From Rhodothermales bacterium (lineage in GTDB: Bacteria; Bacteroidota; Rhodothermia; Rhodothermales; VXPQ01), in the NCBI GenBank assembly GCA_040904565.1, contig JBBDTI010000031.1:9766-73765 (forward strand): a stretch of 64,000 nucleotides of DNA, given 5' to 3'. This document shows, in pieces, positions 15,319-53,851 of the stretch. Made by a program: the position numbers and the translations under genes. Below the pieces are notes generated by a model. The model was given only the letters and a program-made list of their open reading frames with translations, was not told where the DNA came from and searched no databases. Position 1 is the first letter of the stretch. Each line of letters starts with the position of its first letter.

Positions 15319-15827
15319 GGTATGCCGATCTTCTCATAGCATGCTTGATGGCGTCCGTCGTCGCGTCCTGCACCGGCTCCAAGGAGGTCGAAGCACCGCC
15401 GGACGAACGCTTCGGCCACCGGTTCGTCGACCAGGGGCCGGAAGGGAGACGGACGATTGACGTCACACCGCCCCGTTCGGGGGCTGAGTTTTATTACTAT
15501 CCGGCCGTTATAGACACGGTACAGGTTCGTCCGGCGTCATTTACAACGGGATTGGCGGAAAGCGGACAGGTGCCCGTTGAGGTTCTGGTGAAGGGATCGC
15601 TTCCCGATGCCTGCACGGAACTGCATGACGTCGATCAGGAGCGGATGGGCCACCTCATCGAAATACGGCTCGAGATGCGCCGGCCGCGGGGCGTTGTATG
15701 TGCCGCCGTCGCTCGCCCCTATCGCTTCTATCTCGCCCTGGATGGTCTATACGGGCCGGGGTCCTACACCTTGAAGCTGAACCGAAAGGTGTTTCCGTTC
15801 GGGATCCGCCCGCCTGACGCGGGATAA
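15315..15827 (+). CDS. hypothetical lipoprotein
   Basis: The TTG start overlaps the rsfS stop (TTGA). The N-terminus MRYADLLIACLMASVVASC has a lipobox (VASC). I do not recognise a family. Confidence 0.55.
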   Translation: MRYADLLIACLMASVVASCTGSKEVEAPPDERFGHRFVDQGPEGRRTIDVTPPRSGAEFYYYPAVIDTVQVRPASFTTGLAESGQVPVEVLVKGSLPDACTELHDVDQERMGHLIEIRLEMRRPRGVVCAAVARPYRFYLALDGLYGPGSYTLKLNRKVFPFGIRPPDAG

Positions 15828-15882
15828 GACCTGGTGGCATGCATCGCGACCAAACGCTTACGCATCAAACTAACCTGGCCAC

Positions 15883-16251
15883 GTGAGTCGATTCTTTCTT
15901 GGAACGGGGGCCGTGTTGGCCGGTCTGGCTGTAGCCCTTGGTGCGTTTGCAGCGCACGCGCTCAGTGGGCGCGTAACGCCGGAGCGGATAGACGTTTTCG
16001 AGACGGCAGCACGGTATCAGATGTACCATGCGCTTGCCCTGATCGGATTGGCATGGACGGTTCGGCACTGGCCCGTATGGCAGATGCACTGGGCCGGTTA
16101 CTGCTTTCTCGCCGGCATCGTCCTCTTCTCGGGAAGCCTCTACCTGCTCGTACTGACGGACACCGGGTGGCTGGGGGCCGTTACGCCGCTCGGTGGCGCC
16201 GCCTTCATAGCCGGGTGGGCGCTGATGGCGTGGGCTGCCTTTAGCGGCTAA
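15883..16251 (+). CDS. DUF423 (YgdD/TMEM256-like) membrane protein
   Basis: GTG start. GAVLAGLAVALGAFAAHAL...ARYQMYHALAL...LFSGSLYLL is the characteristic 4-TM DUF423 pattern. Confidence 0.85.
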   Translation: MSRFFLGTGAVLAGLAVALGAFAAHALSGRVTPERIDVFETAARYQMYHALALIGLAWTVRHWPVWQMHWAGYCFLAGIVLFSGSLYLLVLTDTGWLGAVTPLGGAAFIAGWALMAWAAFSG

Positions 16252-16310
16252 ACGGACGACGGCGATGCCGCGGCGTCGGTCAATCCATCGCCGGCGATCG
16301 TCGCGCGTCG

Positions 16311-16676
16311 CTATGCGACTTCGTCTTCCTCGAAGAGCAGCGTGATGCTTGGCATCAGGTTGTACTGGTTTGCCAGGCCCAGGAGGGCGTCTGCCGCGGC
16401 TTCCGGCGCGTCGAACGCCGCATGCTCTTTGCTGTCGACCGCAAGCGCGTAGCCGATCTCTGCATCCTCGTCGAGACCGTCTTCCCATTCGGTTGCCTCC
16501 TCGATGACGAACGAACCGTCCTCGGGCATGAATGAAGCGATGAACCGCTCCTTTCCAGCATTCGTGTCGATCAGACTCAGGCTTCCGATGGCGCCGTACT
16601 CTTCATCGTAGAAGAGCGTTTCCGCAACGAGGCGGCGGGTGAAATGCTCCATGTTGAAAGGATTCATCGTGGCCAT
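16311..16676 (-). CDS. hypothetical acidic cytoplasmic protein
   Basis: This is ORF 16311..16739 with the start taken at ATG 16676 (MATMNPFNMEHF...). It is strongly acidic (D/E-rich). I recognise no family, and the start is uncertain. Confidence 0.45.
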   Translation of the reverse strand: MATMNPFNMEHFTRRLVAETLFYDEEYGAIGSLSLIDTNAGKERFIASFMPEDGSFVIEEATEWEDGLDEDAEIGYALAVDSKEHAAFDAPEAAADALLGLANQYNLMPSITLLFEEDEVA

Positions 16677-16859
16677 ATAGGGATGTCGCGTCGTTTGTCC
16701 GTTTGCGCAAGGGATAACTGTAAGTCCGATCCCGCCCATATGATCCCGCAGATGCTACCTGCCCGCATGTGTCAGGTGAGGTCGTGCGGGCCTGACCCGC
16801 AGGTCTGCGGCGCGGGTGCACGTTTCTCCCCCGCCGGAGCGCGGCACGGGCACGGTTTC

Positions 16860-17621
16860 CTATCCCGCCGGTGTGTGGCGCGGGCGCGATAATCGTTCGA
16901 GATAGGCTTCGGCTTCCCTGCCGTCGAGATGGTGGAGGTCAACGTCGAACAGGTCGGAAAAGTCGTGGACGAGCCGCTTTTTTACGGTCGAAACGTCGAC
17001 ATCTCGACCCAGTTCTTCGCGCATCGACGTCACGCCGCGGTCCGAGATGCCGCACGGCACAATGTGCGAGAAGTAGGATAGATCCGTGTTAACGTTCAGT
17101 GCGAAGCCGTGCATCGTCACCCACCGGCTGCACCGTATGCCCATCGCGCAGATTTTTCGCTCGTTCCCCGTATCGTCCGGCCCGATCCAGACGCCGGTTC
17201 GATTCTCGCTTCGCCGCCCTTCCAGGCCGAATGCGCCCACGGTCCTGATGATCGACTCTTCCAGCTGGCGCAGGTAGCGGTGGATGTCGGTAAAGAACCG
17301 GTCGAGGTCCAGGATGGGATAGCCGACGATTTGTCCGGGACCGTGGAAGGTGATGTCGCCTCCACGATCGATCTCGACGAACGACGCGCCGCGCTTCCGA
17401 AGCAGCTCGTCGGATGCGAGCAGATGTCCGGCGTCGCCGCTCTTGCCAAGCGTGTAGACGGGGGGGTGCTCCACGAGCAGCAGGACGTGAGGGACGCGGT
17501 GCGGTGGTGTGCCGCGTTTCGCGGAAATGAGAGCGGATTGCACCCGGCGCTGGAGCTCCCAGGTCGGACGGTAGGCCGCGTGGCCCAGATCGCAGACGAC
17601 GACGGTTTCTCTAGCGTTCAT
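16860..17621 (-). CDS. lipB: octanoyltransferase (lipoyl(octanoyl) transferase)
   Basis: The start is taken at ATG 17621 (MNARETVVVCDLG...). Signatures: LLLVEHPPVYTLG, RGGDITFHGPGQIVGYPILDL, KICAMGIR...TMHGFALNV. The upstream 125 codons of the track ORF are R/S/T-rich junk. Confidence 0.9.
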   Translation of the reverse strand: MNARETVVVCDLGHAAYRPTWELQRRVQSALISAKRGTPPHRVPHVLLLVEHPPVYTLGKSGDAGHLLASDELLRKRGASFVEIDRGGDITFHGPGQIVGYPILDLDRFFTDIHRYLRQLEESIIRTVGAFGLEGRRSENRTGVWIGPDDTGNERKICAMGIRCSRWVTMHGFALNVNTDLSYFSHIVPCGISDRGVTSMREELGRDVDVSTVKKRLVHDFSDLFDVDLHHLDGREAEAYLERLSRPRHTPAG

Positions 17622-44634: not shown

Positions 44635-44890
44635 CTCGATCTAAAACCGTTATTGCACACGGCGGTTGACCCATGTATCCAAGGGGTTACGCGAAAAGCA
44701 CCGTTATTGCCACTTGCGATTAGATCGTGGCGGATCTATATTAAGATCACCTCATGCGCCTGGAGACCCATTCACGTGGGGACCATCAGTCGCTTCAACG
44801 TGGGCTTCAAGAAGCTCGGTCTGGTGGGCAGGCCGGGCTTTTTGGTCTCCGGCCCTCGGATGCCCAGCTTGTCAACACGCCGCCGACGTC

Positions 44891-44928
44891 TTGTGGATAT
44901 CGTGTTAGTCAATTGTGGATTAGTCGTG
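44891..44928 (+). repeat. two direct repeats TTGTGGAT(n2-4)TCGTG just upstream of the strong promoter
   Basis: ttgtggatatcgtg (44891-44904) and ttgtggattagtcgtg (44913-44928), with starts 22 bp apart. The repeats end 12 bp before the -35 hexamer at 44940. The core TGTGGAT resembles a DnaA-box core. Confidence 0.5.
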
Positions 44929-44939
44929 GCGCGATTCTC

Positions 44940-44968
44940 TTGACGTGCGCACCCTTCCACGCTATAAT
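44940..44968 (+). promoter_or_regulatory. consensus sigma70-type promoter (TTGACG-17-TATAAT)
   Basis: TTGACG at 44940-44945, an exact 17-nt spacer, and a perfect TATAAT at 44963-44968. No ORF with coding character follows it. Confidence 0.6.
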
Positions 44969-44974
44969 AAGCCC

Positions 44975-46009
44975 AGTGCCTGACGGCACTGTTCCTTGAC
45001 GCGACTGAAAACTCTGGGCTGCATGAGGATGCCCGTGCACTGATCGTAAGATCAGTCAGGAGATGCGGCAATCGAACGGCAGGCGGTGCCGGTTGGTCTG
45101 AAGGGGTTCGCCCTCGCAGGCTTTCTGGAACGGCTGCCGGTTTGGATGCATGCGTATCCATTCGCTCACAGACGCGCTGCTTCGGCAGTTAAGTGTGAGT
45201 CGGGTGGAATCGCCAAGCCTTCTCGTCGTGGACCGTGGCTTCGGCCGCCGGTCCCCTCGGTTTCGGCCTTCGGGTCGGCCGAACGGAAGCGACGGATGGT
45301 GCGCATCAGTCCCGCGCGATGCTATGAAGCGATCGGCTGAAAAGCCGTCTGCGGAGAGCGGCGTTTGTTGATGCAGTGAGCTGGAGGATGTTCGGTGGAG
45401 GCCGGACGCGTGATGAAACCGTCTGTCGAAGGACGACGGTGGAACGTGTCCCGGTCGGTGAAGCCGGTATTCGCCACGTGCTCGCCGAGAGCGGTTTGTG
45501 ACGAAGCGGCCGTACCTTTGGGTGCGACGTGGATCCAACCGCTCGATGACGCGGCCAACCGCTCGCTGCGGAGAACGACGTTCGACGAACCAGGCGGTGC
45601 CGGATCGACTCCGGAGCACGGACGCTCTATGACGCGACGGCAGCAATGCCGCCGCTGAGAGCCGACGTGTGATGAAGGAGTGGATCGGCCAGATCAGCCG
45701 GGCGTGGAGCGCGAGCGAGAAAACTGAACGTGCGGGCAATCAAAGGTCCGTGGCTGCTAAACCGTCTGCCCATGCGGTTTAGACGTATCGCTGCCGGGAA
45801 ACCGACAGCCGTGCGCACGGCCACCAGTGCCGGTCTTCGTACCGGCAGGAGAGTTGGCCTCCCCACCGATGGTAGGTTGCTGTTTCGGCAGCGAACTGCA
45901 TCGAGGGAGGCCGGTCGCGCTGAGGGATAATTACATGGCGCACTCCGGATGCGCCGCACGATTGCACACGATTCTCTGATGCCGCCTGCTCTCGCAGACG
46001 GCATTTTTT
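44975..46009 (+). ncRNA. candidate large (~1.03 kb) structured non-coding RNA of unrecognised family
   Basis: The unit is bounded by the consensus promoter (44940-44968) and an intrinsic terminator (45979-46009), and only junk ORFs occur in all six frames. It has many short perfect hairpins capped by stable tetraloops. UUCG loops: CUGC-UUCG-GCAG 45177-45188, GUGGC-UUCG-GCCGC 45235-45248, GGCC-UUCG-GGUC 45265-45276, GCUGU-UUCG-GCAGC 45879-45892. GNRA loops: ACUGAUC-GUAA-GAUCAGU 45039-45056, CGGCA-GCAA-UGCCG 45638-45651. There is also an 8-bp enclosing helix, GGCCUCCC 45856-45863 paired with GGGAGGCC 45905-45912. The ends are approximate. Confidence 0.45.
45979..46009 (+). terminator. intrinsic (Rho-independent) terminator
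   Basis: AUGCCGCCUGC-UCUC-GCAGACGGCAU forms 10 bp with one C/A mismatch, followed by a U-tract running through 46009. It lies 80 nt upstream of the next gene start at 46090. Confidence 0.7.
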
Positions 46010-46089
46010 ATGACAGGGCTTCCCGTTGGGCGCGGAATGGACATTCCGTTCGCATGTTTCCCTCCATCAGCCGTTAGCTGGTTTTCGGC

Positions 46090-46740
46090 ATGTCCCTCGC
46101 CGCGCGCGTCCACGTCATCGTCGTCAACTACCAGACTCCGGACCTGCTGGATACGGCCGTGCGGTCGTTCGTCGAGCACTACCCGGACGTTCCCCTGCTG
46201 ATCGTCGACAACGGGTCCCGCGACGCGTCACGAGACGTCATCGAGACACTGCATGCTGACCTTGCGAACGTGTCGTCCCTCCAGTTGGAGGAAAACCGCT
46301 ATCACGGGCCGGCCATGGACCTGGCCCTGCGGCACGTAGATGTCGACTACGTGTTTTTGCTGGACAGCGACACGAAGACCATGAGGGGAGGTTTCCTCGA
46401 GGAGATGCTGGCGCGATCCGAGGAGCCGAACGTATACGGTGTCGGAAAGATCGCGGAGGTAAACGAACGTGGATTTGCCGCGACACGGGGCATACCCGTG
46501 CTCGTGAGCGCCTACATGCTCATCGATCGAGAACGCTATCTCGACCTTCCGCCGTTTATTCACCACGGTCTTCCCGCCCTTCAAAACTTTCGCGCGGCGG
46601 CCGAAGCAGGATACCGACTCGAACCCTTTCCCGTAGACGAGTATATCGAGCATTTCGGACGGGGGACGGCCGAGCGGTACGGATACGGGTTGGGCTGGAA
46701 GGGGCGCCTCGATTACCTGCTCAACAAGCTGGGCTTTTAG
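46090..46740 (+). CDS. glycosyltransferase family 2
   Basis: VHVIVVNYQTPDLLDTAVRSF...LLIVDNGSRD...FLLDSDT is the GT-A/GT2 N-terminal pattern with a DxD-like motif. Confidence 0.8.
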   Translation: MSLAARVHVIVVNYQTPDLLDTAVRSFVEHYPDVPLLIVDNGSRDASRDVIETLHADLANVSSLQLEENRYHGPAMDLALRHVDVDYVFLLDSDTKTMRGGFLEEMLARSEEPNVYGVGKIAEVNERGFAATRGIPVLVSAYMLIDRERYLDLPPFIHHGLPALQNFRAAAEAGYRLEPFPVDEYIEHFGRGTAERYGYGLGWKGRLDYLLNKLGF

Positions 46741-46824: not shown

Positions 46825-48186
46825 TCACCACGGCAAACTCGAGGTCGGGCGGCCTACCACCCCCTCCATTTCGCGGAATTCCTCGGCATACCGTTTCACC
46901 TCGTCACGTTCGATCACACCCCGTTCGGTCGCGTACGCGTCGATGAGGTCTGCCGGCACGCGTTCGAAGATCTCGGTTCTAACATCTACGCGGTCCGACA
47001 CAAGCCCGACGCTGGAACGATCCGCTCGTTCTTGCTCGGCAGCGACATCTCCGAACCGGCCGTCAAGTTCTCGCTTTACGGCGACGTCCTCGGAGCGGTC
47101 GTCACGTTCTTGCTTCTCGGACGCCTCCCCGGAGCGATCCGATTCATTCGTCGCGAGCAGCTTGTCGAGGGCAACCGCTACATAGACAGGCACGCCCCGA
47201 CCGCGTGCGACGAGTGCGGCCAGGCGTGAGCCTACCTTGTTGACGATCGATCCATCGGGGAGCAGGGTATCGCACCCCAGCAGCACGGCATCGAAGGGCG
47301 GTGCCGAAGCCATGGACGCGTCGGGGATGAGCGTCACGTCGAGCCGTGCCCGATCGAGCCGTCGCGCTACCTCCACACCTTCGCCACCCGGAAGCGAGAC
47401 GGCCACGACGACGCGTGCCCGCGTCGACAGGAGTGCATCCAGCACCGTTCCCGAACGGGAGACCGTAAGCACCGTTGCGCCGCCGATGAACTCGGCTGCC
47501 GCACTCGATGCAGCGTGGTCGGACGAAACGGCTTCCCGAAGCACGGTATGAATACACGCGGCCCGTTCGCCGCCGTCCGGCATCGACGTCAGGCACCGAC
47601 GCATCGCACGGTTGATCCGGTTCCGGACGGCTGCCATGGACGGACGAGCAGCGACCAGTTCCTTCGCGAGCGCTCTAATATGAGTCCGGGAGGAGGCCTC
47701 GGCCGCGCGATCGCGGAGAACTTCGAGCGCCCGCAACGACAGGTAGGCCGAACCGTGTTCACGATCCGTTCGCACGTCAGCTACCGACGGCGCGACGGCC
47801 CGGTACGACCGCCACAGCTCCGGAACGGTCGCCCGCTGCAGTATGTCGGGCGGGGCCGCCCATTCCCCCTCGGTCGACTCTTCATTGAGCGCGGGCTGTC
47901 GCCGGCGCCCGTCGAAGAGGTACGGATGCACCGTCCACGCGATGCCGAGTTCTTTGTCTTCGACGGAGAAGGGGTTGCCGCGTCGGACGAGTTCCACGTC
48001 GGTGAACCCCGTTTCCTCTTCGATCTCGCGACGAGCCGCTTCGTCCGGGTCGCCTTCGGCATGCCCGGCTACGGCTCCCCACCTTCCGGGATAGGACCCC
48101 ACCTCGCTGCTGCGTCGCAGCAGCAGGACCTCGGCCTCGGCTCGAACGAAGCACGTTACGACGTGCCTGACTTCAAGATCGACCAT
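46825..48186 (-). CDS. fusion protein: N-terminal NUDIX hydrolase + C-terminal eIF-2B alpha/beta/delta-family (ribose-1,5-bisphosphate / MTR-1-P isomerase-like) domain
   Basis: The N-terminus has a Nudix box, GAVAGHAEGDPDEAARREIEEETG. The remainder matches the IF-2B family layout (ARPSMAAVRN..., TVLTVSRSGTV, LLGCDTLLPDGSIVNKVGS, VPVYVAV, ...FERVPADLIDAYATERGVI), with an acidic insertion before the last strand block. Confidence 0.8.
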   Translation of the reverse strand: MVDLEVRHVVTCFVRAEAEVLLLRRSSEVGSYPGRWGAVAGHAEGDPDEAARREIEEETGFTDVELVRRGNPFSVEDKELGIAWTVHPYLFDGRRRQPALNEESTEGEWAAPPDILQRATVPELWRSYRAVAPSVADVRTDREHGSAYLSLRALEVLRDRAAEASSRTHIRALAKELVAARPSMAAVRNRINRAMRRCLTSMPDGGERAACIHTVLREAVSSDHAASSAAAEFIGGATVLTVSRSGTVLDALLSTRARVVVAVSLPGGEGVEVARRLDRARLDVTLIPDASMASAPPFDAVLLGCDTLLPDGSIVNKVGSRLAALVARGRGVPVYVAVALDKLLATNESDRSGEASEKQERDDRSEDVAVKRELDGRFGDVAAEQERADRSSVGLVSDRVDVRTEIFERVPADLIDAYATERGVIERDEVKRYAEEFREMEGVVGRPTSSLPW

Positions 48187-48191
48187 ATGCT

Positions 48192-49067
48192 TCAGGCGTC
48201 GATGAAGTGTTCCAGTCGTTTTACCTCATCCTGCGACAGCGTCACGTCGGCCGCCTTCGCCGAATCCGCAATGCTCTCAGGCCGCGACGCGCCTGGGATG
48301 GGGAGGACGACGGGAGATTTCGCTCGCAGCCACGCGAGCGCGATACAGTGTGGGGAACGTTCCCGCGCCTGGGCCATCTCGACGAGCACGTCGTGCTCGC
48401 CGACCCGCTTGGCACGCCGTCGTCCACCGACGGGTCCCCAGGGCAGGAACGTGAGTCCCTCTCGGTCACAGTACTCCAACGTGCCGTCCTCGAGCGGCTT
48501 TCGGTGCCAGAGTGAGAACTGGTTCTGGACGGATACGACGCGGATCACGTTACGAGCACGCTCGATTTCCTCGACGGAGTAGTTCGATACGCCCACATGC
48601 CGGATCAATCCCTCATCGACGGCTTCGCGCACCGGTGCCAGGGAGGCCTCGATGGATACGTCCGGATCCGGTGCGTGATGCTGCCACAGCTGGATGGGTT
48701 TGCCGCCCAGTGCCTCGACGCTCTCGCGGATGGTGCGCCGAAGGTGATCCGGATCACCGTTTCGCGGCCATCCGCCCTCGTGGCGCATCAGTCCGCCTTT
48801 CGTCGCGACGACGACACCGGATCGATCGCCTTCGTACGCCTCTAGGGCTTCCCGAATAAGCCGTTCGTTATGGTGCTTGTCTGGTTCATCCAGACAGTAC
48901 GAGTCGGCCGTATCGATGAATGTAATGCCGCTGTCGAGGGCACGATGCACGACAGAGAGGGCCTGATCGCGCGGCGGCCGTCCATCGATCGAGAGGTGCA
49001 TCCCGCCGAAGCCGATGACACTGACCTCAAGATCCGTATCGCCGATCGTCGTGGTGGGCAGTTTCAT
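48192..49067 (-). CDS. aldo/keto reductase
   Basis: TDLEVSVIGFGGMHLS, FIDTADSYC, IQLWQHH, VGVSNYS. The stop lies only 5 nt before the NUDIX-fusion start. Confidence 0.9.
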   Translation of the reverse strand: MKLPTTTIGDTDLEVSVIGFGGMHLSIDGRPPRDQALSVVHRALDSGITFIDTADSYCLDEPDKHHNERLIREALEAYEGDRSGVVVATKGGLMRHEGGWPRNGDPDHLRRTIRESVEALGGKPIQLWQHHAPDPDVSIEASLAPVREAVDEGLIRHVGVSNYSVEEIERARNVIRVVSVQNQFSLWHRKPLEDGTLEYCDREGLTFLPWGPVGGRRRAKRVGEHDVLVEMAQARERSPHCIALAWLRAKSPVVLPIPGASRPESIADSAKAADVTLSQDEVKRLEHFIDA

Positions 49068-49166: not shown

Positions 49167-50048
49167 CTACAGCGCAACGTTCAGCTTCTTCCCCAGAAGC
49201 AGATGCGCCAGGGCATACAGCTCCAGTCCGAATGGAGGATACCCCAGGTATCCCAGGAGGGGCATCTCAAAGAAGTACAGGAATTCGACGCCGGGCGTAC
49301 GATACGTCCATCGCGGGAAGGAGTACATATTCCAGAGCTCCCAGAAGAAGCCGCAGATGAGGGCGCCGAGCGCGAGGGACAGGGCGGGGCGCCAGTCGCA
49401 GCGGTCCAGCGCATCGAAGAGGGAAGGTTGCCCCGTCCACAGGTTAGCGGCCTCGATCAATCCGAAAAGCATCCCCCAGATAAATGGATAGAAGCCGTCC
49501 GGATACATGTAGATAAGCAGGGCCGCAGCGACGCCGGCCGAAAAGGAGGCGGCCGCCGTATGACGGCTGGCTGGTATCCGCGGGCCCGTTCGACGTTCAT
49601 CCACCCACCGAAAGGAACGGACGAGTTCAGCCGTTTCAAACACGGCCGGCATCACCGTCGAAAAGGCTACCGTACAAAGTATGGCATATTCCAGGTCGGA
49701 AAACAGCTCGGCGCCGACGTACGTCCAGTTCTGCGTGTGGAGATTGATCATCTCGAAGAGCCACCAGGCCGGTGCCGATGCGACGAACAGGGCGACGAAA
49801 CCCCTGCGCGAGCGCGACAGGATGGACGCTCCTCGTCGCAGGTGGACGAGCCCGTCGACGGCAAGGATGTAGCCGAGCCACAGCGGGAAGAAGAAGACGT
49901 GGGTACGCGGTCCGTCGACCGTCCAGTTCAGCGCCCAGAACGCCAGGACCAGGGCCGCGCCGGCCCAGCCGTGAACGGGAAACCGGTGCTCGGCGACGCG
50001 TTGGGGGTCCGGAGCAGAAGACACGGGTCTATTCGATCCGTTTCTCAA
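49167..50048 (-). CDS. hypothetical polytopic membrane protein with internal duplication
   Basis: About 8 hydrophobic segments. It has a repeated motif W(W/E)LFEMINLHTQNWTY / FWELWNMYSFPRWTY. The track start is TTG at 50048, overlapping the GNAT stop by 20 nt; an in-frame GTG at 50024 is an alternative. Confidence 0.6.
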   Translation of the reverse strand: MRNGSNRPVSSAPDPQRVAEHRFPVHGWAGAALVLAFWALNWTVDGPRTHVFFFPLWLGYILAVDGLVHLRRGASILSRSRRGFVALFVASAPAWWLFEMINLHTQNWTYVGAELFSDLEYAILCTVAFSTVMPAVFETAELVRSFRWVDERRTGPRIPASRHTAAASFSAGVAAALLIYMYPDGFYPFIWGMLFGLIEAANLWTGQPSLFDALDRCDWRPALSLALGALICGFFWELWNMYSFPRWTYRTPGVEFLYFFEMPLLGYLGYPPFGLELYALAHLLLGKKLNVAL

Positions 50049-51168
50049 ACATCGCGTATTCCTTGTCTACGACGCCCCCGAACGATTCGAGCGCGTTGCG
50101 GAGCCGCTTGTTGCTGTCGAGCACCCAGCTCATCTCGCTTGCATCGTAGCCGTTCCGGGGGCCTTCCTGAATGACGGCCAGATTGAGGACGGCATCCAGC
50201 CCGCGGCCCTGGTATTCGCGGAGCACGCCCATGAGCGGCGTCCGGCACTCGTAGAGTCCACCCCACTTCGCATAGGCAAGCATCTTCGGCAGCCCGAACG
50301 GCAGCAGGCGACCGTCGTCGACGTGCCGGAGCAGCTGGTTTATGTTTGGGAGGGAGATCGAGAAGGCGACGGGCCGTCCCGCATCCTCCAGGATAAAGAC
50401 GATGTTCGGGTCGACGATCTGCTTCATCTCGCCGGCGAGCTGCCCGAATTCGCCTTCCGTCATCGGAACGTGCCCCCAATTGTTCGACCAGGCGTCGTTG
50501 TAGATGTGGAGAATGGTCCTGGCTTCTTCCTCGAACCGGTCCATATCGATCGTCCGAACGCGGATGCCCGGGTTGCGCTGCTTGACGATTTCCACGCCGC
50601 GTTCCAGCCTCTCCGTCGACGCGTACTTCTTGTGGATGTAATACGCCCACATCGTCATGGCGCGTTCGAATCCGTGGCGCTCCAGGAAGGCCTCGTAATA
50701 CGGCGCGTTGTAGGGCATGAGCACGGACGGTTCGCGATCGAATCCACCTACGAGGAGTCCGGCCGTGTCGTTTAGAGACGGGTTCGCGGGGCCTCGTACC
50801 CCGGTGAGGCCTTCGCTCCTGAGGCGCTCGATGGCCGCGTCGAGGAGCGCTTCCGCTACGGCATAGTCGTCGATGGTTTCGAAAAAACCGAAGAAACCGT
50901 TACCATCGTCGTATTTCTGCAGGTGCATGCCGTTGACGACGGCAGCGATGCGGCCCACCACGCGACCGCTCGCATCTTCGGCAAGCATCGAGTGGATGGC
51001 GCTGTGTTCGAAAAAGGCGTTCTTCCTGGGATTCAAGACACGGCGCACGTCACGCCGGAGGGGTGCGACCCAGGCGGGATAGTCGCGGTAGAGATCATAC
51101 TGGAAATCAATGAACCGCTTAAGGTCTTTCTTCGAGGAGACCGGGCGGACCGTTACGCGTGTCGACAT
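50029..51168 (-). CDS. GNAT-fold acyltransferase-like protein (~379 aa family)
   Basis: MSTRVTVRPVSSKKDLKRFIDFQYDLYRDYPAWVAPL..., and a C-terminal acyl-CoA N-acyltransferase-like core (VLREYQGRGLDAVL). Its function is unknown. Confidence 0.7.
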   Translation of the reverse strand: MSTRVTVRPVSSKKDLKRFIDFQYDLYRDYPAWVAPLRRDVRRVLNPRKNAFFEHSAIHSMLAEDASGRVVGRIAAVVNGMHLQKYDDGNGFFGFFETIDDYAVAEALLDAAIERLRSEGLTGVRGPANPSLNDTAGLLVGGFDREPSVLMPYNAPYYEAFLERHGFERAMTMWAYYIHKKYASTERLERGVEIVKQRNPGIRVRTIDMDRFEEEARTILHIYNDAWSNNWGHVPMTEGEFGQLAGEMKQIVDPNIVFILEDAGRPVAFSISLPNINQLLRHVDDGRLLPFGLPKMLAYAKWGGLYECRTPLMGVLREYQGRGLDAVLNLAVIQEGPRNGYDASEMSWVLDSNKRLRNALESFGGVVDKEYAMFEKRIE

Positions 51169-51281
51169 GAATGGCAGATCGGTGAGCGATGTGAAGCGCG
51201 TCCCGAAATGAAGACGCGCCCTATGAAGATAGGAAGGGACGTACAGCGGGTCGAGGAAGCCGATCGCGATGGGCGTCCTGT

Positions 51282-52574
51282 CTAGACGGCCCCGTTATTA
51301 CTGATGATTCCGTGCTTGCGGCCTACGCGTTTGAATGCCTCAAGGATGAAGTCGAGCTCGTCGTTCGTGTGCGTCGCCATATAGGAGGTGCGCATCAGGG
51401 ACTGACCCTGCGGCACGGCCGGTGGAACGACGGCGTTGACGAATACACCCTCTTCCAGGAGGTCGCGCCAGAATTTGAAGCACGTCATCATGTCACCGAT
51501 GACCACCGGAATGATCGGCGTCTGGCTCGTCCACACATTGAATCCCAGGTCACGAAAGCCCTCACGCATATAGTCTGAGATCTCCCAGAGCCTGTCGAGT
51601 CGTTCCGGCTCACTTTCCAGGATATCGAGACACTTGATGACCGTCGCCACGTTAGCGGGCGGCATGGAGGCGCTGAAGACGTGTGTAGAGCTGCGATGCC
51701 GGATGAACTCGATCACGTCCCGATCGCCGACGCAGAATCCTCCCAGTGAGGCGAAGCTCTTGGAGAACGTGCCCGTCACGAGATGCACGTGATCGTCGAG
51801 GTCGTGATAGGCCGCCGACCCACGGCCCCCGGGCCCGATGACGCCGCATGCATGGGCATCGTCGAGCATCAGCGCGGCACCGAACTCTTCGGCCAGCCCC
51901 ACGAGTTCGGGTACCTTCGCGATAACCCCGCTCATCGAGAACACGCCGTCGGTGACGATGAGCTTTCCGGCATCCGGGCGATCGTCGTGCACCTTTTTCA
52001 TCTGGTGGCGCAGATGGTTCATGTCGTTGTGCCGGTAGCGCAGCGTTTCCGCGTGGCTGACCTGCGTTCCCGCCACGATACATGCGTGGTTGTCCTTGTC
52101 GGAAAAGATGAAGTCCCCCTTGCCGGTTACGGCCTGAATGACGCCCTCGTTCGTCATGTATCCTGTCGAAAACAGGACGCAGGCGTCGCGGCCCATGAAG
52201 GCGGCCAAACGCTCTTCGAGTTCGATGTGGAGGTCCAGTGTGCCGTTCAAGAACCGGCTTCCCGTGCAGCCCGTGCCGTACTGTTTGATCGCCTTTGCGG
52301 CCGCCTCCTGGACGCGCGGGTCGGACGTCAGGCCCAGGTAGTTGTTCGATCCGGCCATGATGATTTCACGGCCGTTCATAATGGCGCGCGATCCCTCATT
52401 TCGCTCGATCTGGCGGAAATACGGATACAGATCTGCCTTCTTGACCTGTGCGTAGTCCCCGGATTCATCGAAGAACCGGTGGCACTTATCGAAAAGTGTC
52501 GGTTCGCCTCGCAGCGTTTGAACGTCCGACGGCGGCGTGCCGTCGTCCTCCTTGTGAAAGTCAGGCGTCGTCAT
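51282..52574 (-). CDS. alpha-oxoamine synthase, serine palmitoyltransferase-like (PLP-dependent)
   Basis: The start is taken at ATG 52574 (MTTPDFHKEDD...). Signatures: SNNYLGLTSDPRV, DKDNHACIV, DDAHACG, and the PLP lysine context TGTFSKSFASLGG. The long N-terminal extension (LYPYFRQIE) is typical of SPT/cysteate-acyltransferase-type enzymes rather than BioF. Confidence 0.85.
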   Translation of the reverse strand: MTTPDFHKEDDGTPPSDVQTLRGEPTLFDKCHRFFDESGDYAQVKKADLYPYFRQIERNEGSRAIMNGREIIMAGSNNYLGLTSDPRVQEAAAKAIKQYGTGCTGSRFLNGTLDLHIELEERLAAFMGRDACVLFSTGYMTNEGVIQAVTGKGDFIFSDKDNHACIVAGTQVSHAETLRYRHNDMNHLRHQMKKVHDDRPDAGKLIVTDGVFSMSGVIAKVPELVGLAEEFGAALMLDDAHACGVIGPGGRGSAAYHDLDDHVHLVTGTFSKSFASLGGFCVGDRDVIEFIRHRSSTHVFSASMPPANVATVIKCLDILESEPERLDRLWEISDYMREGFRDLGFNVWTSQTPIIPVVIGDMMTCFKFWRDLLEEGVFVNAVVPPAVPQGQSLMRTSYMATHTNDELDFILEAFKRVGRKHGIISNNGAV

Positions 52575-52705
52575 GTTCGACTCGAGGGTGATGCTGGGAG
52601 GGTAGCGGTGAAGGTGCGAGAAGAACAATTCTTACGAGCAAGGGCACCCTAAGTGCTGGAGACCATGCGGTTAGCAGGTATAATATGCAATATCTTGCTC
52701 GCATC

Positions 52706-53851
52706 TTAATCGAACCTTCCTGTCGACGGCGTAACGCCGGCGGCGGAAGCGTCTCGCTTCCGTGCACGCGGCGGAGTTGATACGGCGGTGTGTCGCGAAA
52801 GGACTCCTTCGATCGCTTCGACAGCGTGATCGTTTCCGCAGGTAGCGTGGGCCTCGAGTCGTTCCTCGAAGGTGGAGTGACCGTCCAGAAAGGAGGTCAC
52901 GTCCTCCTCCGTTAGCGGGCGGTCGATGACGGCCTCACCGAGACCCTCACGTTTCAGAAAGAGTGCATTGAGCGTTTGTTCGAAGATCCCGCGGTTGGGA
53001 ACGACCAGCAGGGGTTTGCCCAGAAACAACGTTTCGCTCGTCAGCGTGAAGCCCGCCGTCGAGATGACGCCGCGGCTCGATGCCAGATCGCTGAGGAATT
53101 CGTCGATACACGGTTCCTTGAATCGGACGTTCGGGTAACGGTGGCCTCCGCCGGGCGGGTCGAAGTTATATGCGACGAACGGTGCGTCTACGTTTCGCAG
53201 CGTGCGAAGCACGTGTTCGGCGCCGTCCGTGTGATTGTAGTATACAAGGATGTGTTCGCCGCGCGTCGGGACGAGGTTCTGAACCGCCGGTCGGATGATC
53301 GGAGGCACGAGCTTTACGCGATCGGGGCGGCGCAGGGGTGGATAAAAGAAAGAAGTGATGAGCGTGAGCTCTGGAGAGGGCGGGACGATCAATCGGATGA
53401 CGAGTCCCGTGAGGCCGGCTCCCCATCGATACTGCCAATCGAGACGGTACCTGGTTTCCGTTACAATCTGCTGGTGATTGAACGAAACCACGGGGACCCC
53501 GAGGCGGTCGGCCGCGCGGTGAGAGAACGCCTCGAAATCGGTGATGACCAGGTCGGGATCGACGATCGCGAACGTATCAGCGAGATCCGTCACGATCCGA
53601 TCCAGATGAACGATCGAATCCCAGTTGGCATGGACGGTCTGAAAGATGCACACCTTGTTTCCCTCCATCACCTGTCTAAGTGACGGCACCTCAATGACCG
53701 CCTCATCCTTCATCGTAAGAATGTCTCGGGACGTACCGCCGCAGCAGAACACGATCTCGTGGCCGCGTGCCCGCAGCGCATCGGACACCGCCATGACGCG
53801 CGACGCATGTCCCCGACCCTGTCCACTTAAAGCGTAAATGATTCTAGCCAT
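52706..53851 (-). CDS. GT-B glycosyltransferase (MGT / TIGR00661-like)
   Basis: The start is taken at ATG 53851 (MARIIYALSGQGRGHASRVMAVSDALRARGHEIVF). The C-terminal half carries the donor-binding pattern (ISTAGFTLTSETLFLGKPLLVVP). Confidence 0.75.
   Translation of the reverse strand: MARIIYALSGQGRGHASRVMAVSDALRARGHEIVFCCGGTSRDILTMKDEAVIEVPSLRQVMEGNKVCIFQTVHANWDSIVHLDRIVTDLADTFAIVDPDLVITDFEAFSHRAADRLGVPVVSFNHQQIVTETRYRLDWQYRWGAGLTGLVIRLIVPPSPELTLITSFFYPPLRRPDRVKLVPPIIRPAVQNLVPTRGEHILVYYNHTDGAEHVLRTLRNVDAPFVAYNFDPPGGGHRYPNVRFKEPCIDEFLSDLASSRGVISTAGFTLTSETLFLGKPLLVVPNRGIFEQTLNALFLKREGLGEAVIDRPLTEEDVTSFLDGHSTFEERLEAHATCGNDHAVEAIEGVLSRHTAVSTPPRARKRDASAAGVTPSTGRFD

Follow-up and report, generated by a model that had tools for sequence, protein, structure and literature searches.

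The 64,000-nucleotide stretch analysed here (the window) belongs to contig JBBDTI010000031.1 of a Rhodothermales bacterium and carries, on its minus strand, a run of closely spaced genes centred on an alpha-oxoamine synthase (AOS) that resembles serine palmitoyltransferase (Spt) and on a predicted GNAT-fold acyltransferase. An earlier note on positions 49167-53851 had taken these two genes, a glycosyltransferase (GT) upstream of them and a membrane protein and an aldo/keto reductase (AKR) downstream of them as one complete set for making a glycosylated sphingoid or capnoid lipid. All five minus-strand open reading frames that it described are present and agree with the gene calls of a Rhodothermales metagenome-assembled genome (MAG; GCA_040878475.1), which encodes identical proteins on one contig. 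The tight packing that it remarked upon is equally real, and a promoter and terminator scan found no convincing terminator between the co-oriented genes. The genes can be read as two packed units: unit 1 (53851-50029), which would be of the sphingolipid type, and unit 2 (50024-46825), which comprises the membrane protein, the AKR and a NUDIX–IF-2B fusion. Upstream of the GT lie DUF5683, parB, parA and uvrD. The G+C content is ∼62% across the whole window, which has zero matches to Rfam. The features are listed in Table 1.

Table 1. Features of the locus, with positions counted along the window.
Feature	Position	Strand	Assignment and remarks
GT-B glycosyltransferase (381 aa)	52706..53851	(-)	PF13528; TIGR00661-like, below cut-off; accessory, upstream of the Spt-like gene
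Spt-like alpha-oxoamine synthase, AOS (430 aa)	51282..52574	(-)	PF00155, NCBIfam, PDB and tree
AOS Lys272, predicted to bind pyridoxal phosphate, in GTFSKS motif	codon 51759-51761	(-)	Alignment with S. multivorum Spt
AOS Ala302			Spt-type residue at the position of SulA Lys281
Tandem-GNAT acyltransferase, bCerS/YghO family (379 aa)	50029..51168	(-)	Predicted N-acyltransferase for the second acyl chain
Membrane protein, ∼8 helices (285 aa; 293 aa with TTG start at 50048)	49167..50024	(-)	Widespread uncharacterised family
Aldo/keto reductase, AKR (291 aa)	48192..49067	(-)	PF00248
NUDIX–IF-2B fusion (MtnA / ribose-1,5-bisphosphate-isomerase-like)	46825..48186	(-)	Follows the AKR

The AOS matches Pfam family PF00155 with 186 bits. 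Among the NCBIfam models the Bacteroidota Spt model (SerpalmtaseCFB) ranks first with 495 bits, ahead of KBL (393 bits) and BioF (381 bits). The best match in the PDB is the Spt of Sphingobacterium multivorum (3A2B; 401 bits), followed by Thermus BioF/KBL-type (293 bits), E. coli KBL (276 bits), BioF (185 bits) and CqsA (143 bits) entries. Alignment with the S. multivorum enzyme gives 47% identity over 376 columns without any insertion or deletion around the catalytic lysine, and Lys272 in the GTFSKS motif, which is common to both proteins, aligns with the S. multivorum lysine. Ala302, located 30 residues past Lys272 in the segment FSASM, is also shared with S. multivorum Spt, whereas the corresponding diagnostic segment reads FSNSL (Asn) in E. 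coli Kbl and YSTSM (Thr) in BioF; all of the checked active-site positions match those of the S. multivorum enzyme. In a small neighbour-joining tree, from which SulA and CapB sequences were left out, the AOS falls with S. multivorum Spt and with all of the collected GNAT-linked AOS, apart from E. coli Kbl and BioF. The NCBIfam and PDB scores, Ala302 and the tree thus bear out the proposal of the earlier note that the enzyme is Spt-like and not BioF/KBL-like. The long N-terminal extension that the note regarded as typical of such enzymes does exist, as the AOS is ∼26 residues longer at its N-terminus than S. multivorum Spt, but its length varies among relatives and it is not diagnostic. Judged by its sequence, the protein is an Spt-like alpha-oxoamine synthase, the amino-acid substrate of which is most likely to be L-serine, condensed with a long-chain acyl thioester. 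It is probably an Spt of the Bacteroidota type, independent of a dedicated acyl carrier protein (ACP).

The residue at position 302 also bears on a sulfonolipid (capnine or halocapnine) pathway, which the earlier note had kept as an alternative and in which the AOS would condense a cysteate-type amino acid and the GNAT would supply a second acyl chain. Such a pathway would explain the halocapnines of Salinibacter and Salisaeta, as the Salinibacteraceae contain halocapnine sulfonolipids without an assigned biosynthesis and Salinibacter and Salinivenus have both kept the AOS–GNAT pair; the pair is, however, equally conserved where no halocapnines are listed, for example in Rhodothermus. The halocapnine structure described by Corcelli and coworkers in 2004 is said to carry an O-acyl rather than an N-acyl chain, which we have counted against this alternative. 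SulA/CapB-type cysteate acyltransferases have their alpha-oxoamine synthase fold, chemistry and broad phylum in common with the window AOS, and the sulfonolipid and sphingolipid pathways are chemically parallel (PMC9304779). The sole clear active-site difference reported is Lys281 of the SulA cysteate acyltransferase, which is an alanine in Spt (PMC9304779). The window AOS has Ala302 at this position, where all known cysteate acyltransferases carry lysine (PMC9304779), and scores much lower against the SulA/CapB-type structures 28eh and 7u7h (∼235 bits) than against Spt (401 bits). The alanine and the low scores disfavour a capnine-type product, which we consider to be quite unlikely, with the Salinibacteraceae as the family in which it might still apply.

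The second protein of the pair is more divergent in sequence. Its match to the Pfam GNAT family is just below threshold (20.1 versus 20.7 bits), and it has no significant sequence match in the PDB or NCBIfam. The AlphaFold (AF2) model (mean predicted local distance difference test score of 81.5) matches tandem-GNAT structures in Foldseek with E = 2e-15 to 5e-11, including MAB_4324, a clavulanate tandem GNAT, a glucosamine N-acetyltransferase and MshD (7Q3A, 2WPW and 5KF1 are among the identifiers). The GNAT fold assigned in the earlier note is borne out by the best of these matches, and at the level of the predicted model the protein is confirmed as a tandem GNAT. Its family is large, with 7,262 clusters (50% identity) at E <= 1e-3 and 1,229 at E <= 1e-30, and is well conserved within the Rhodothermales, where the top 120 matches are all at least 64% identical.

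Relatives of this protein occur in Caulobacter-type sphingolipid islands. Over 98-100% of its length the window GNAT is 35-36% identical (E = 1e-67 to 1e-73) to the island proteins that we compared, from Sphingomonas parapaucimobilis, from Klebsiella and Pseudomonas plasmids and from E. coli (YghO). On the plasmids of Klebsiella michiganensis and Pseudomonas sp. BYT-5, genes for a fatty-acyl-AMP ligase (FAAL), an epimerase, an ACP and an AOS face an 'N-acetyltransferase' that has 36% identity to the window GNAT along its whole length and is adjoined by lptF/lptG paralogues and diacylglycerol (DAG)-kinase-like genes. This layout is that of Caulobacter, in which aasR–cerR–acpR–spt is accompanied by cerS (CC_1154) beside LptF2/LptG2 (CC_1156/CC_1155) (PMC11324152). 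The S. parapaucimobilis homologue is found in the context lptF–lptG–desaturase–N-acetyltransferase, an arrangement that equals that of Swit_3905, Swit_3906 and Swit_3908, which are listed as the orthologues of CC_1156, CC_1155 and CC_1154, the last being the bacterial ceramide synthase bCerS (PMC11324152, supplement); the homologue is thus placed in the CC_1154 position. E. coli YghO (35% identity, 99% coverage, E = 4e-73) belongs to the same family, and the gene adjoining yghO is named 'spt: serine palmitoyltransferase' in RefSeq. That the family occupies the bCerS position in known sphingolipid islands supports the ceramide-synthase-type role put forward in the earlier note, and the window GNAT is probably a member of a bCerS/YghO family of predicted N-acyltransferases.

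Some observations on this family reach beyond the Rhodothermales. The E. coli island (L182, NZ_MG591698.1 1343-9122; H71-H75) contains yghO, the genes FAAL–epimerase–ACP–spt and lptF/lptG paralogues, and of 5,426 complete E. coli genomes 4,068 contain 80% or more of this 5.6-kb island. Complete Caulobacter-type islands reside on conjugative plasmids in K. michiganensis (IncFIB; L175) and in Pseudomonas sp. BYT-5 (L180), each with FAAL, CerR-like, ACP, Spt-like and bCerS-like genes, lptF/G paralogues and a DAG-/ceramide-kinase-like gene; the presence of such islands on gammaproteobacterial conjugative plasmids suggests that sphingolipid synthesis can move horizontally. Bacteroides finegoldii also has a family member (L183 6995-8131; 29.5% identity, 99% coverage), which lies upstream of parE and coaD and away from Spt, in agreement with the published unlinked genes in Bacteroidia.

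The neighbourhood of the AOS and GNAT genes was surveyed in the genomes of 80 Rhodothermales species, including Rhodothermus, Salinibacter, Salinivenus and Roseithermus. In 72 of the 74 loci that offer enough sequence the AOS gene lies directly upstream of the GNAT gene and in the same orientation, with 137 bp as the median distance between the two; the pair is usually found in the frame parA–parB–DUF5683–[GT]–AOS–GNAT. Median identities in the relatives are 75% for the AOS and 66% for the GNAT, compared with 75% for ParA and 59% for ParB. One of the two exceptions is a partial locus and the other is an insertion of 6 kb in Roseithermus. In R. sacchariphilus (L028 2000-8000) the inserted stretch between the Spt-like and bCerS-like genes is a polyamine block with a deoxyhypusine-synthase-like gene, arginine decarboxylase, a CN hydrolase and agmatine deiminase; the idea that extra lipid genes lie within it was rejected, as polyamine genes are found there. 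A co-oriented HAD-family hydrolase gene directly follows the GNAT gene in ∼50 of the 80 relatives (for example L028 9134-9925 and L066 9220-9915) and might belong to the lipid locus as its third conserved gene; the window is without it and has the membrane-protein module there instead.

Outside the phylum, AOS and GNAT also occur as a single polypeptide. Two proteins are AOS::GNAT fusions (P0359, of 780 aa, and P0367), and a third is a fusion of a GNAT with a fatty-acyl-AMP ligase (P0358). More distant GNAT homologues (32-41% identity) are found in operons of the AOS–GNAT–epimerase-family reductase–PAP2 type in four other phyla. Examples are a locus with an epimerase-family reductase, an AOS::GNAT fusion and a PAP2 gene (L090), one with an epimerase-family reductase, an AOS and a GNAT (L091), a Gemmatimonadota locus in which the genes AOS–GNAT–epimerase-family reductase–PAP2_3 overlap (L094) and a Rubrobacter plasmid with AOS–GNAT–NAD(P) oxidoreductase. 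The AOS proteins of these operons are 48-52% identical to that of the window and their best model is likewise the Bacteroidota Spt. Such linkage accords with the frequent clustering of bacterial Spt, bCerS and CerR (PMC11334938). The AOS–GNAT pair, adjacent throughout nearly all of the Rhodothermales loci and fused elsewhere, can accordingly be taken as the conserved core of the gene set that the earlier note described. These findings also bear on the notion that the AOS is a housekeeping KBL or BioF that an unrelated acetyltransferase adjoins by chance. The good scores against both models and the location among housekeeping genes (parA, parB and uvrD) would fit such an enzyme, but the Spt models and structures score clearly higher, the FSASM segment differs from those of Kbl and BioF, no tdh or bio gene adjoins, and both the AOS::GNAT fusions and the adjacency in 72 of 74 loci speak against it. 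We regard this explanation as very improbable.

An Spt-like AOS, a GNAT whose family holds the bCerS position and the conserved pairing and fusions of the two lead us to read the core of the locus as Spt plus bCerS. That the pair makes a ceramide-like membrane lipid, with the membrane protein and the AKR forming a separate module, is the account that we hold to be probable. We infer the following substrates, reaction order and product. The Spt-like enzyme would form a 3-keto sphingoid base by condensing serine with a long-chain acyl thioester, and the bCerS-family GNAT would N-acylate this base to a (3-oxo)dihydroceramide, by analogy with the order in Caulobacter, where bCerS acts on 3-oxo-sphinganine or sphinganine (PMC11324152). 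The 3-keto group would then be reduced by a reductase encoded outside the window, or possibly by the nearby AKR, and in GT-bearing lineages only a sugar may be added by the GT-B enzyme.

Several points weigh against a Spt–bCerS locus of this kind. The score of the AOS on SerpalmtaseCFB (495 bits) is lower than the curated equivalog cut-off of 640 bits; the GNAT-linked AOS of other phyla give similar values (470-481 bits). A CerR-like reductase was not found in the 64-kb window by tblastn (E <= 10), the rest of the genome not having been searched, and such a gene lies within 7 kb in only three of the 80 relatives. The window is also without a dedicated ACP or an acyl-ACP synthetase/acyl-AMP ligase. 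The predicted kinship of the GNAT to the characterised bCerS (CCNA_01212) runs through positional orthologues and not through direct alignment. The membrane-protein gene begins 4 nt past the GNAT stop codon, so that co-transcription and some functional tie between the two are possible, and the GT, whose acceptor is putative only, is absent from two thirds of the relatives. Finally, a search of the open-access literature returned no paper linking the Rhodothermales with serine palmitoyltransferase, and the polar-lipid descriptions found for the order mention no ceramide; apart from halocapnines they record only amino-, glyco- and other lipids that are unidentified. With regard to the reductase, the three relatives in question (L024, L029 and L031) carry on the minus strand (∼15400-16900), 6-7 kb downstream of the GNAT gene, a CerR-like gene of the NAD-dependent epimerase family that shares as much as 38% identity with the L091 operon's reductase; the lineage thus possesses such enzymes.

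The score below the Spt cut-off and the absence of CerR from the window would also suit a non-canonical aminolipid. The AOS would then use alanine or glycine (giving a 1-deoxy base) or another substrate, and the product would be an N-acyl amino-ketone or amino-alcohol, possibly staying at the 3-keto stage; PMC11334938 discusses bacterial clades of Spt-like enzymes whose products are of the 1-deoxy type. The checked active-site positions nevertheless all match those of S. multivorum Spt, and the distant AOS–GNAT members do carry CerR-type reductases together with PAP2 head-group enzymes. We judge a product of this kind to be improbable and retain the ceramide-like lipid as the preferred reading.

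The genes downstream of the GNAT appear to form a module of their own. The model of the membrane protein (predicted local distance difference test score of 90) shows ∼8 long helices; it has zero matches in Pfam and NCBIfam and no significant fold match in the PDB, the best being a mycobacterial Insig homologue with E = 1.2. Of the description in the earlier note, an eight-helix protein with an internal repeat, the helices are thus found in the model, but the duplication lacks statistical support and was rejected: alignment of the two halves gives z = 1.5 and an hhalign probability of 0.1%, and only a motif of ∼15 residues, [LF][FW]E..N...W.Y, recurs. The overlap of its start with the GNAT stop codon, likewise proposed there, is possible with the TTG codon at 50048, but the public gene call starts at the GTG at 50024. 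The AKR was correctly recognised at 49067-48192 (PF00248, 210 bits). A fusion of a NUDIX domain with an MtnA / ribose-1,5-bisphosphate-isomerase-like domain, as in the next gene, is unusual.

As a single pathway the five genes would comprise condensation by Spt, reduction by the AKR, N-acylation by the GNAT, glycosylation by the GT and a flippase or modifying role for the membrane protein. The co-orientation and tight packing without clear terminators, the 4 nt between the GNAT stop codon and the membrane-protein gene, the succession of these two genes in six related loci (L001, L005, L010, L019, L040 and L095) and the need for some other reductase in a window that has none of the CerR type all fit this view. 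The gene order is not conserved, however, which the earlier note had itself named as grounds for refuting its proposal: only 4 of 73 loci have the membrane protein next after the GNAT, an AKR occurs in 2 of 69, and the GT occupies its place in 23 of 68. Most relatives have the HAD hydrolase at the position of the membrane protein, so that unit 2 would occupy a slot that in most Rhodothermales belongs to the hydrolase. In two further loci (L088 and L089; 1134-4594), which represent an unrelated genomic context and contain neither an AOS nor a GNAT, the same three genes recur together: membrane protein, AKR (62% identical) and NUDIX–IF-2B fusion. Among 80 metagenomic loci with membrane-protein homologues, 79 have no AOS, GNAT, AKR or NUDIX–IF-2B neighbour, and the one that differs is closely related to the window. 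The trio recurs without the AOS–GNAT pair and is rare beside the GNAT, and we have treated it as what is probably a separate module. The AKR goes with the membrane protein and the NUDIX–IF-2B fusion, and as the pathway reductase it was rejected on co-inheritance. The complete five-gene pathway of the earlier note does not withstand these comparisons and has little likelihood in our view.

The membrane-protein family itself extends across phyla, with over 550 metagenomic loci at 50-60% identity, and has a member in an Actinomycetota MAG. Its neighbours are variable (L095-L174), the most frequent being a UbiD-type decarboxylase (seven loci); a CofH/MqnC-type radical SAM enzyme adjoins it in three. 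These two kinds of neighbour hint at a quinone-related role.

The GT matches PF13528 with 232 bits. Its score on TIGR00661 (MJ1255/VC2487 glycosyltransferases) is 153 bits, below the cut-off of 195.9 bits, so that the resemblance to this family seen in the earlier note is fair but does not amount to membership. Close homologues in a large protein collection are essentially confined to the Rhodothermales. Relatives offering a functional lead were found neither there nor among plasmids or in the PDB; apart from Rhodothermales orthologues there are only weak structural-sequence relatives among the GT1 UDP-glycosyltransferases, such as YjiC and OleD. Where present, the gene lies between DUF5683 and the AOS, and this fixed slot, which in a third of the lineages adjoins the Spt-like gene on its upstream side, would suit an accessory enzyme acting on the head group. 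It is a plausible candidate for a ceramide glycosyltransferase.

Away from this locus, a stretch of ∼1.4 kb between a rhomboid gene and a GT2 gene (44650-46090) is without a convincing open reading frame or Rfam match; in relatives these two genes are separated by a comparable distance.

An Spt plus bCerS system is of a type that is already known, and the differences from its counterparts lie mainly in the layout. Caulobacter crescentus (Spt CC_1162, bCerS/CerS CC_1154, CerR CC_1164, AcpR and AasR) likewise combines an Spt-type AOS with a soluble GNAT-fold N-acyltransferase, but the two genes are eight genes apart there and directly adjacent in the window, which is without CerR, the dedicated ACP, the acyl-ACP synthetase and the LptF2/G2 paralogues. 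The E. coli island, in which YghO, of the same family as the window GNAT, adjoins the RefSeq-named serine palmitoyltransferase, and the other proteobacterial islands differ in being divergently arranged and in having ACP, FAAL, CerR-like and lptF/lptG genes, all of which the Rhodothermales locus lacks. The Gemmatimonadota and Rubrobacter operons and the fusion (L090, L094 and L176) have the same AOS clade (48-51% identity), a related GNAT (37-41% identity) and the same gene order, but they carry, in cis, genes for the reductase and for a phospho-head-group enzyme, whereas the window has an upstream GT-B gene and no reductase. S. multivorum Spt, finally, is without the N-terminal extension of the window AOS, which also stays below the NCBIfam equivalog cut-off. 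Modestly new are the direct adjacency of Spt and bCerS in a Bacteroidota-related order, the absence of CerR in cis and the uncharacterised GT-B partner.

These comparisons carry a warning that tight packing of genes does not by itself make a pathway, as the membrane protein and the AKR are separate. They also single out the bCerS/YghO tandem-GNAT family as a very large one (more than 7,000 clusters at 50% identity) that is tied to Spt by fusion, and the GT of the locus, from an uncharacterised GT-B family, is put forward as a candidate ceramide glycosyltransferase. A bolder extension, which we put forward as speculative and rather unlikely to hold in full, is that the whole order, including Rhodothermus marinus and Salinibacter ruber, makes an unreported ceramide-type lipid through a two-gene Spt–bCerS locus without CerR, that a PF13528 GT-B enzyme without a characterised relative glycosylates it in some lineages and that in the Salinibacteraceae the locus might supply the entry point that is still missing for the halocapnine 'sulfonate sphingoids'. 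The AOS and GNAT genes provide two precise knock-out targets. Sphingolipid-type lipids would be predicted for an order from which none is reported in the literature searched, and which includes widely used thermophilic and halophilic model organisms.

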